Sequence record: AJ318417.1
Origin: a phage
Reading direction: 5' to 3' (one strand)
Length of the DNA stretch: 920 nucleotides
Positions 1-920 of this stretch are shown in pieces. Under the pieces are notes generated by a model, which was given only the letters and a program-made list of their open reading frames with translations, did not search any database and was not told the DNA's origin. Position 1 is the stretch's first letter; each line of letters opens with the position of its first letter. The position numbers and the translations under genes were made by a program.

Positions 1-20
1 TAAGCAGAAAGCATAAGTTG

Positions 21-50
21 AGGACTCCTTCGGGAGTCCTTTTTTATTTT
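21..50 (+). terminator. Rho-independent terminator: 8-bp GC-rich stem with UUCG tetraloop followed by a T-run
   Basis: Seen in sequence: aggactcc (21..28) pairs perfectly with ggagtcct (33..40) around the loop ttcg (29..32), followed directly by tttttatttt (41..50). Stop triplets (taa) at 1..3 and 14..16 suggest an upstream + strand gene ends just before it, but that reading frame is not visible in the window. The minus-strand side has no T-run, so it appears unidirectional. Confidence 0.8.
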
Positions 51-69
51 CCAAAGATTGCATAAAGTT

Positions 70-99
70 GTTTACAGTATGGTTCCTTTGTGATAGTAT
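70..99 (+). promoter_or_regulatory. Putative sigma70 / T4-early-type promoter (P1) driving the 127..459 ORF
   Basis: Seen in sequence: -35-like gtttac/tttaca at 70..76, a 17-nt spacer, and a -10-like tagtat at 94..99 preceded by TG at 91..92 (extended -10-like). An A/T-rich tract lies upstream (41..69). The GTTTAC -35 form is the one described for T4 early promoters. The predicted start site near 106..108 is inferred, not demonstrated. Confidence 0.55.
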
Positions 100-113
100 T
101 ATCTTACACAAAC

Positions 114-120
114 AAAGGAG
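114..120 (+). promoter_or_regulatory. Shine-Dalgarno sequence (aaaggag) for the 127..459 ORF
   Basis: Seen in sequence: aaaggag lies 6 nt upstream of ATG at 127; the spacer aataaa is A-rich. Confidence 0.75.
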
Positions 121-126
121 AATAAA

Positions 127-459
127 ATGAAAACGATTAATCTGAACGCTGCAGTTAAAACTAAATGCTTCAATGGTAAATATGATGAAACTATGTGGTT
201 CTTAATGGCAGTTGAAGGTGATATTATTGAAGTAGAAACAACAGAAGGTATGGGAACAGATTTCACCTTTACAATTCAGGTTCATAATTTCTTTACTGGT
301 TGGATTTATGAATTGAATACAGTAATCGTTGGAAAAATTGAACAAAATGAATTAGGTGAATGGTATTATGTTACAGCTCGCCAACGTGCCGAACGCTTAA
401 TTGAGAAGATGAAAAAAGTCGGTAAACTTGACATGCAACACTGGAAAGTAGTAAAATAA
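127..459 (+). CDS. Hypothetical small phage protein, 110 aa; function unknown
   Basis: ORF from the six-frame track with ATG start, strong GGAG RBS at the correct spacing, its own upstream promoter and a TAA stop at 457..459. I verified the translation by hand against the track. The N-terminal ~80 residues are rich in aromatic and beta-branched residues, and the C-terminal ~30 residues are basic (RQRAERLIEKMKKVGK...). No family was recognised. Confidence 0.85.
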   Translation: MKTINLNAAVKTKCFNGKYDETMWFLMAVEGDIIEVETTEGMGTDFTFTIQVHNFFTGWIYELNTVIVGKIEQNELGEWYYVTARQRAERLIEKMKKVGKLDMQHWKVVK

Positions 460-461
460 TT

Positions 462-490
462 GTTTACTTTGGTACAGGATATGATATTAT
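462..490 (+). promoter_or_regulatory. Putative sigma70 / T4-early-type promoter (P2) driving the 528..893 ORF
   Basis: Seen in sequence: gtttac at 462..467 (context tgtttacttt matches the T4 early -35 motif), a 17-nt spacer (468..484), and tattat at 485..490 as the -10. It begins 2 nt after the stop codon of the upstream ORF. The start site is inferred to lie near 497..499. Confidence 0.55.
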
Positions 491-501
491 ATACCTGTAC
501 C
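471..501. repeat. Perfect 8-bp inverted repeat (ggtacagg / cctgtacc) enclosing a 15-nt AT-only loop that contains the P2 -10 element
   Basis: Seen in sequence: ggtacagg at 471..478 is the exact reverse complement of cctgtacc at 494..501; the loop at 479..493 is atatgatattatata. No T-run follows (gcaattaaacatc), so it is not a canonical intrinsic terminator. Possible roles are an RNA hairpin in read-through transcripts from P1 or a DNA-level operator for a dimeric protein. Confidence 0.6.
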
Positions 502-515
502 GCAATTAAACATCT

Positions 516-520
516 CGGAG
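516..520 (+). promoter_or_regulatory. Shine-Dalgarno sequence (cggag) for the 528..893 ORF
   Basis: Seen in sequence: ggag at 517..520 lies 7 nt upstream of ATG at 528. The context ggagaataaaaatg is nearly identical to the first ORF's initiation region ggagaataaaatg (117..129). Confidence 0.75.
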
Positions 521-527
521 AATAAAA

Positions 528-893
528 ATGAACTACATCAACTTTGAACGTAAATATGTTTCTAATGGTATTGCAGGTTCTATTGATACTATCTGCCTTT
601 GGAAACATCAAAATGGATCAGTATGCGAAATTGAACAGTATATGACTCCTAACTATGTTTATATGCGATTTGAAAATGGCATCACGGTTTCAATCACAAT
701 GGAAGGTTCCAACTTTAAAATCGCTCTGGATGATGATTTTCGTCAACGCGATTTAGGGACTCATCCTTGCTGGAATGGTGCTAATCGCAAGCTTTTGGTT
801 AAAACTTGGATTCGTCATATTCTGAGTAACAGAGCTAAACCTGAGCATCTTGAAGCAATCTTTGATGTAGTTCTTAACGAATTTGATATTTAA
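528..893 (+). CDS. Hypothetical small phage protein, 121 aa; function unknown
   Basis: ORF from the six-frame track with ATG start, GGAG RBS, its own upstream promoter and a TAA stop at 891..893, followed by a GC-rich hairpin. It contains Cys23, His27, Cys33, His79 and Cys81 (including a GTHPCWNG stretch). No family was recognised. Confidence 0.85.
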   Translation: MNYINFERKYVSNGIAGSIDTICLWKHQNGSVCEIEQYMTPNYVYMRFENGITVSITMEGSNFKIALDDDFRQRDLGTHPCWNGANRKLLVKTWIRHILSNRAKPEHLEAIFDVVLNEFDI

Positions 894-901
894 AATAAAT
901 G

Positions 902-920
902 AGGGGCTTTGGCCCCTATT
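902..920 (+). terminator. Probable transcription terminator hairpin after the second ORF, truncated by the window edge
   Basis: Seen in sequence: aggggc (902..907) pairs with gcccct (912..917) around the loop tttg (908..911); the window ends after att, so the + strand T-run cannot be confirmed. On the minus strand the stem would be followed by catttatttta, so it could be bidirectional or serve a convergent downstream gene. Confidence 0.5.

Follow-up and report, generated by a model that had tools for sequence, protein, structure and literature searches.

Probable promoter early stem-loop cassettes in the 30.9–30.8–30.7 early region of T4-like phages

The 920-nucleotide (nt) stretch of phage DNA analyzed here over its whole length (sequence record AJ318417.1, hereafter the window) is the 30.9–30.8–30.7 early region of a Tequatrovirus, and its two intergenic blocks are probably copies of the dispersed T4 early cassettes called promoter early stem-loops (PeSLs), which would serve as punctuation of early transcription and, secondarily, as junctions of gene modules. 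That the blocks punctuate transcription is very likely, given their sequence, strand bias, and covariation together with the early expression class of the genes. The window matches 679 phage records, 451 of them over at least 80% of its length at 96–99% identity; nearly all of the latter belong to Tequatrovirus (T4-like) and come from Escherichia, Shigella, or Yersinia. When aligned to T4 (NC_000866) and phage Aplg8, the window proves to be the early-gene strand and to run from the end of gene 30.9 through 30.8 and 30.7 to a hairpin before 30.6. Window position x corresponds to T4 position 130380 − x, and the two early promoters, Pe1 and Pe2, lie at T4 positions 130309 and 129917, respectively. 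The features of the window are as follows.

1–16, plus strand: 3′ end of gene 30.9, closing with the stop codon TAA (14–16), placed by alignment to T4 and Aplg8 and by their annotation.
20–50, plus strand: predicted intrinsic terminator, a GAGGACTCC-TTCG-GGAGTCCTT stem (hairpin 1, 20–41) with a C(UUCG)G tetraloop, followed by the T-run TTTTTATTTT (42–50).
68–106, plus strand: Pe1, early promoter of 30.8, with −35 TTGTTTAC (68–75), TGA of the extended −10 (91–93), −10 TAGTAT (94–99), and a predicted start at ~106.
117–131, plus strand: initiation region of 30.8, GGAGAATAAAATGAA, in which GGAG is both the Shine-Dalgarno (SD) sequence and a RegB recognition motif; copy 1 of a direct repeat.
127–459, plus strand: gene 30.8 (open reading frame 1, ORF1), short form, 110 amino acids, Pfam PF06019.
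460–497, plus strand: Pe2, early promoter of 30.7, with −35 TTGTTTAC (460–467), TGA (482–484), TATTAT (485–490), and a predicted start at ~497.
471–501, plus strand: Pe2 palindrome or hairpin (hairpin 2), GGTACAGGATATG-ATAT-TATAT(A)CCTGTACC, lying across the spacer, the −10, and +1, with no U-tract after it.
517–532, plus strand: initiation region of 30.7, GGAGAATAAAAATGAA; second copy of the direct repeat, at a distance of 400 nt from the first.
528–893, plus strand: gene 30.7 (ORF2), 121 amino acids, Pfam PF06919.
902–917, plus strand: hairpin 3, AGGGGC-TTTG-GCCCCT, 3′ of 30.7, forming a joint without a promoter between this gene and the SD of 30.6.

The two promoters, two ORFs, and three hairpins had all been listed in an earlier sequence-only reading of the window and were found where it had placed them. 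The same applies to the ttgtttac −35 context that it had noticed in both promoters (TTGTTTAC at 68–75 and 460–467) and to the near-identical initiation region of both ORFs, which contains the exact 11-mer GGAGAATAAAA at both ATGs (117–127 and 517–527). The PeSL-cassette architecture that it had proposed fits the published definition of these elements in T4-type phages. As defined in RB49 and phi1, a PeSL combines AT-rich sequence with a strong early promoter and with a stem-loop, for which five positions are known, and ends in an SD and an ATG (Arbiol et al. 2010, PMC2839356). The commonest positions of the stem-loop are between the promoter boxes or overlapping the −10, and about 50 copies occur per genome, mostly beside small variable ORFs (PMC2839356). 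For the PST/T4 pair the definition was extended to TTTACW-N17-TAYWAT preceded by an AGNA-loop-TCNT stem-loop (Comeau et al. 2014, PMC4122927). Analogous to the PST/T4 elements, block 1 of the window carries its stem-loop upstream of the promoter at 20–41 (AGGA...TCCT type), while in block 2 the stem-loop at 471–501 runs across the spacer and overlaps the −10. Pe2 follows the promoter consensus as TTTACT-N16-TATTAT, and Pe1 (TTTACA-N17-TAGTAT) departs from it once, by the G at the third −10 position; both carry the TGn extended −10. In both blocks, a stop codon, an AT-rich stretch, a promoter with a stem-loop, and the SD/ATG are found beside small non-essential ORFs, and the cassettes are closed on the 3′ side by the SD and start codon, GGAGAATAAA(A)ATG, at 117–129 and 517–530. 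Dispersed copies on the early strand and indels or replacements between relatives, which also characterize PeSLs, are both observed.

T4 early promoters (Pe) and intercistronic C(UUCG)G hairpins belong to the classical T4 literature, and the window shows no essential difference from them: a GTTTAC −35, a TGn extended −10, TAnnAT, early-strand bias, and UUCG hairpins between cistrons. A generic sigma-70 scan of the window was non-significant (6 sites versus 3.9 ± 2.0), and a T4-specific pattern with a shuffle test took its place. The T4-type pattern GTTTAC-N14-16-TGnTAnnAT occurs twice on the plus strand of the window, against 0.000 expected from 2000 dinucleotide shuffles; in the T4 genome all of its 26 occurrences are on the early strand, and a looser form is found 32 times on the early strand versus 2 on the opposite one. 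Additionally, a dual-omics time course of T4 classed both 30.7 and 30.8 as early, at the RNA and the protein level (PMC9697503 supplement). The annotation of Yersinia phage fPS-90 contains a terminator and two features labeled 'predicted early promoter' at the equivalents of window positions 11–52, 70–102, and 462–491; no promoter or terminator annotation is present at the locus in the two T4 records examined. Across genera, Pe2 with its palindrome (460–501) is 86–93% identical, compared with 87–89% for 30.7 and 60–77% for 30.8. Of the generic sigma-70 matches in the window, the best is TTGACA-N18-TAAAAT (11/12), at 428–457 in the last codons of 30.8, just 5′ of Pe2; it is absent from phages with the long form of 30.8 and degraded in WG01.

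The 11-mer shared by the initiation regions is by itself unremarkable, as an exact repeat of this length arises in 22% of shuffles. Its meaning derives from its placement at both ATGs and from T4, in which GGAGAATAAA(A)ATG has eight copies, every one of them on the early strand and immediately at an ATG. GGAG, at 117–120 and 517–520, is the SD of both ORFs. Furthermore, two copies of GGAGAATAAAATG on the T4 early strand (167029 and 6567, in the denB/ndd.6 and motB/cef gaps) precede no annotated gene and open only ORFs of 8 and 11 amino acids; they may be vestigial cassette ends from past deletions.

Each of the three hairpins proposed in the earlier reading is backed by shuffles, covariation, or both. 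Hairpin 1 (20–41) folds with a free energy of −15.4 kcal/mol (z-score −3.15) and passes a terminator scan of the window that yielded 2 sites versus 0.5 ± 0.8 in shuffles, and the element at 20–50 combines the GC-rich hairpin and U-run of a rho-independent terminator. It is kept in five genera, with compensatory double changes at 5/9 pairs, and a terminator is annotated at this site in Aplg8, PhAPEC2, and fPS-90. The 25-nt core of the element, AGGACTCCTTCGGGAGTCCTTTTTT (window 21–45), recurs identically at T4 15323–15299, 115 kb away, 5′ of another early promoter.

The 61-nt stretch at 455–515, which holds the Pe2 hairpin, folds with a free energy of −20.1 kcal/mol (z −6.1), and none of 200 shuffles is as stable; the hairpin contains a bulge. 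Upstream of 30.7 it is kept in Tequatrovirus, Mosigvirus, Dhakavirus, and Gaprivervirus, the ninth pair being flipped from A-U to U-A in Dhakavirus and Gaprivervirus, and wholly different stems occupy the same position in a Klebsiella phage (GGGTGGT/ACCACCC) and an Erwinia phage (GGTGAGAGTCT/AGACTCTCACC). Hairpins at the Pe2 position are thus found in five further genera (six including that of the window) with three unrelated stem sequences, and those of five relatives, folded singly, gave z-scores of −3.9 to −5.6, with 0/200 shuffles as stable. Gelderlandvirus CGG4-1 has no such hairpin. No U-run follows any of the Pe2-position hairpins, in the window or in relatives, whichever strand is considered. 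On this covariation evidence, the palindrome overlapping Pe2 is under structural selection. In MAFFT/RNAalifold alignments, hairpins 2 and 3 came out with their divergent stems out of register, and per-sequence folding and gap-free stem alignment were used instead.

Hairpin 3 alone is weak (z −1.56); its covariation comprises compensatory changes at 3/5 pairs with 100% of cells paired, and its loop varies among relatives (UUCG, UUUG, UUCA, GAAA, and UAAA). The element is located after 30.8 in the Klebsiella and Erwinia phages, and copies exist at four other T4 sites. Its T-rich tail, CATTTATTTT, is present only on the minus strand, so that it is scored as a terminator of antisense transcription rather than of the early strand. 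Since hairpin 3 has no promoter, the window holds just two full cassettes. An Rfam search of the hairpins gave only chance matches below threshold.

The two cassettes are members of a wider T4 population. The T4 early strand contains 26–39 such promoters, about 13 of them with embedded hairpins and at least five after terminator hairpins; the order of terminator hairpin and then Pe is seen at 163.7, 146.9, 130.3, 58.8, 55.4, and 15.3 kb, and embedded palindromes occur at 146.1, 133.3, 129.9, 73.9, 65.4, 62.8, and 8.2 kb, among others; in the ViennaRNA version of this hairpin scan, three terminators with U-tracts were mislabeled 'noU'. A hairpin with z ≤ −2.5 accompanies 8/26 T4 early promoters versus 4/60 control windows. 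At the family level, exact matches among T4 cassettes reach 44 nt, AAAGTTGTTTACA being present at at least six T4 sites and AGGGGCTTCGGCCCCT at four.

The proposed working of the region begins with the host sigma-70 RNA polymerase, which would start at Pe1 (~106) and Pe2 (~497) immediately upon infection, while the UUCG hairpin and its U-run (20–50) would end transcripts coming from rIII/30.9. The GGAG SD would drive translation, and the same motifs are likely RegB cleavage sites that would later shut off the early mRNAs. According to the T4 annotation, a subset of T4 mRNAs is cut by RegB at GGAG, and processing of one early transcript has been reported; as the SD of both ORFs, the GGAG motifs here resemble RegB sites and are candidates only, some GGAG remaining uncut. 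The predicted Pe2 start falls inside the 3′ arm of the palindrome; therefore, the hairpin could fold only in read-through RNA from upstream, which makes a 3′ barrier or attenuator its most likely role. Such a barrier, the reading preferred here, would insulate 30.8 from 30.7, the 68-nt gap between them being too small for a separate terminator. Hairpin 3 may act in the same manner at a joint without a promoter. As a secondary effect, the recurring motifs of 11–25 nt (reaching 44 nt for certain pairs of T4 cassettes) would serve as module junctions, so that modules of an ORF with its promoter could be deleted, replaced, or inserted at recurring early-strand motifs with expression unbroken.

Natural variants at this locus bear on the secondary effect. 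Salmonella phage Manna lacks 30.8 and Pe2, and its Pe1 5′ leader continues through GGAGAATAAAATGAA directly into 30.7; the two SD/ATG repeats delimit this 400-bp deletion, which is the genomic product to be expected if flanking cassettes recombine. A 30.8 of 122 amino acids, with only ~37–39% protein identity to the 110-amino-acid form, is found in about 35 Tequatrovirus records (LZ1, QOTSP, PD112, and others). Compared with the window, LZ1 is 100% identical up to the 30.8 start, 63% in 30.8, 98% in Pe2 and its hairpin, 85% in the leader, and 97% in 30.7; this profile indicates a replaced 30.8 module bounded by both SD/ATG repeats, and the leader before 30.7 in LZ1 is of Mosigvirus type. In Mosigvirus itself, homology to the window starts only at 462, where the −35 of Pe2 begins, and gp30.7 is ~93% identical to that of the window, while gp30.8 is only ~37% identical. 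In Jiaodavirus KpnM6E1, near-identity to the window begins at the 30.9 3′ end, includes the terminator, and stops with AAAGTTGTTTAC at the Pe1 −35; from there the sequence diverges until GGAGAATAAAATGAA. In Gelderlandvirus CGG4-1, two unrelated small ORFs replace 30.8, and the flanking promoter copies share a 31-nt exact match. Jiaodavirus and Winklervirus contain two extra ORFs between the hairpin 3′ of 30.8 and Pe2, and the promoters flanking this extra-ORF module share 22 nt in the Klebsiella phages. Overall, six events have junctions on cassette motifs versus at least three that end inside genes. The alignment to T4-type genomes that the sequence-only reading had called for thus places module boundaries at both intergenic blocks, in Manna, the LZ1 type, Mosigvirus, Jiaodavirus, and other genera; the invariant synteny that would have counted against its proposal is not what was found, as junctions fall at cassettes in relatives, though most close relatives are syntenic.

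Several observations weigh against the PeSL interpretation, and most of them suit a rival account, in which the blocks serve gene expression alone, as promoters, ribosome-binding sites, and a terminator, resemble one another through convergence on the T4 early consensus, and take no part in recombination; breakpoints would then fall between genes because only such junctions yield viable, expressed recombinants. The Pe1 and Pe2 cassettes resemble each other no more than T4 early cassettes paired at random do (identity 0.68 versus 0.65 ± 0.07; rank 102/300), and their longest exact match of 11 nt compares with a mean of 10.5 nt for such pairs; at this level of likeness, the shared TTGTTTAC and GGAGAATAAA(A)ATG reflect the genome-wide T4 early consensus and no special pairing. 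Furthermore, ~450 of ~490 Tequatrovirus records are syntenic across the window at 96–99% identity, and the gene order 30.9–30.8–30.7–30.6 is kept in Tequatrovirus, Mosigvirus, Dhakavirus, and Gaprivervirus. Given this synteny in four genera and the near-invariant Tequatroviruses, the intergenic boundaries could partly reflect which recombinants survived. The clean deletion of 30.8 is a singleton, Manna alone among 534 records. Some deletions in the region also end inside genes: in LH2 (at 2616–3145), a deletion joins codon 6 of 30.8 to 30.4, the junction containing a 7-nt filler and showing no microhomology, and the fusion proteins 30.8′::30.3 and 30.7′::30.3 represent two events ending within coding sequence. 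In addition, the hairpins at 471–501 and 902–917 have no U-tract on the plus strand, so that the standard model predicts no termination at either. Finally, neither an experimental 5′-end map nor 3′-end data for T4 early RNA were found in the literature, and the start sites at ~106 and ~497 are therefore predictions only.

However, expression signals alone do not readily explain why several independent junctions match repeated motifs to the nucleotide (the SD/ATG in Manna and LZ1, and each −35 hexamer), or why the modules of Gelderlandvirus and Jiaodavirus lie between promoter copies with exact matches of 31 and 22 nt. Moreover, the genes are non-essential, and viability selection against junctions inside them should be weak. 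In RB49 and phi1, reporters revealed both promoter and terminator activity of PeSLs, and deletion or mini-circle formation between flanking copies has been demonstrated experimentally (PMC2839356). Expression signals without any part in recombination are a possible but rather unlikely account. A recombination role of the cassettes is plausible and fits the six natural junctions, although here it is inseparable from survival bias; for exchange, the phage would presumably rely on its general T4 recombination machinery, which would act on short homologies.

A different proposal concerns the Pe2 palindrome, which might function at the DNA level, as a cruciform or as the site of a junction-cutting or recombination factor or of an early-promoter repressor, in an integron-like site-specific exchange. 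The palindrome is near-perfect over 31 bp with an AT-rich center over the −10, is better conserved than the flanking genes, lacks a U-tract on either strand, and has a geometry enriched at T4 early promoters; Arbiol et al. also speculate on a protein that binds the stem-loop (PMC2839356). However, the stem sequence is wholly different between genera with pairing kept, which argues against a sequence-specific protein site, and no dedicated recombinase is known. Covariation cannot distinguish an RNA hairpin from a DNA hairpin at Pe2, and a DNA-level element of this kind is judged improbable. A similarly low probability is assigned to the broader idea that the palindrome is perhaps a dedicated structural signal and not a by-product, that is, either a DNA hairpin or cruciform targeting the phage recombination machinery to cassette borders or a new terminator-independent RNA insulator; if true, the DNA version would amount to an integron-like exchange system without an integrase. 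Highly improbable, lastly, is a role of the Pe2 hairpin as a 5′ stabilizer of a transcript from the sigma-70-like promoter at 428–457, since that match, although the best of its kind in the window and predicted to start at ~464 with the whole hairpin at the RNA 5′ end, lies within coding sequence with an 18-nt spacer and is absent or degraded in phages that all keep the hairpin.

The PeSL interpretation, with the palindrome as an RNA 3′ barrier or attenuator, also has to accommodate differences from the elements of RB49 and phi1. The T4-type copies share motifs of 11–25 nt rather than conservation over ~100 bp; the Pe2 stem is AT-rich rather than polyG/polyC; the cargo consists of conserved families rather than ORFans; and the junctions lie mostly at the SD/ATG motif or the −35, in contrast to the AT-rich region proposed for RB49. 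An analogy of PeSLs to morons and integron cassettes has been drawn by Arbiol et al. (PMC2839356). Like these, the cassettes are self-contained units of gene, promoter, and terminator that are added or removed without disturbing their neighbors; unlike them, they have no integrase or attC-type site and share the orientation of the neighboring genes.

The products of the two genes match their Pfam families over the full length: gp30.8 scores 199.1 bits against PF06019 (Phage_30_8; cut-off 25) and gp30.7 scores 177.6 bits against PF06919 (Phage_T4_Gp30_7; cut-off 27). Both are founding members of these families and also belong to PHROGs of unknown function, and the families extend over ~1000 phage records in many Straboviridae genera. 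The AlphaFold2 (AF2) model of gp30.8 has a predicted local distance difference test (pLDDT) score of 94.9, and no solved structural relative was found with it; the model of gp30.7 is only moderate (pLDDT 68). A PADLOC search and a PDB sequence search for the proteins gave no matches. The proposal of the sequence-only reading that the ORFs are accessory rather than core holds insofar as they are non-core, replaceable, and sometimes lost; they are not ORFans, however, and form widely conserved Pfam families. Public data hold the fusions 30.8′::30.3, 30.7′::30.3, and SH3(31.1-like)::30.8 (entries P0023 from phage RPN226, P0011, and P0024). A homologue of gp30.7 with 31% identity is present at 1501–1872 of Klebsiella phage KaOmega (Vequintavirinae, outside Straboviridae) in an unrelated gene neighborhood, which implies transfer between phage lineages.

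The architecture described here is already known: PeSLs are a published kind of element, and the terminator and both promoters are annotated at the 30.9–30.7 locus of related genomes, so the novelty is low. Sequence alone sufficed to recognize how T4 early genes are punctuated and what part this punctuation is proposed to play in modular gene shuffling; both points had likewise been published already. The added value is modest and consists of the natural variants at one locus with junctions on cassette motifs, the control that reduces the likeness of the two cassettes to a genome-wide consensus, and the covariation evidence for the Pe2 palindrome. If the cassettes do promote exchange, they would help to explain the swapping of small accessory genes in T4-like phages.

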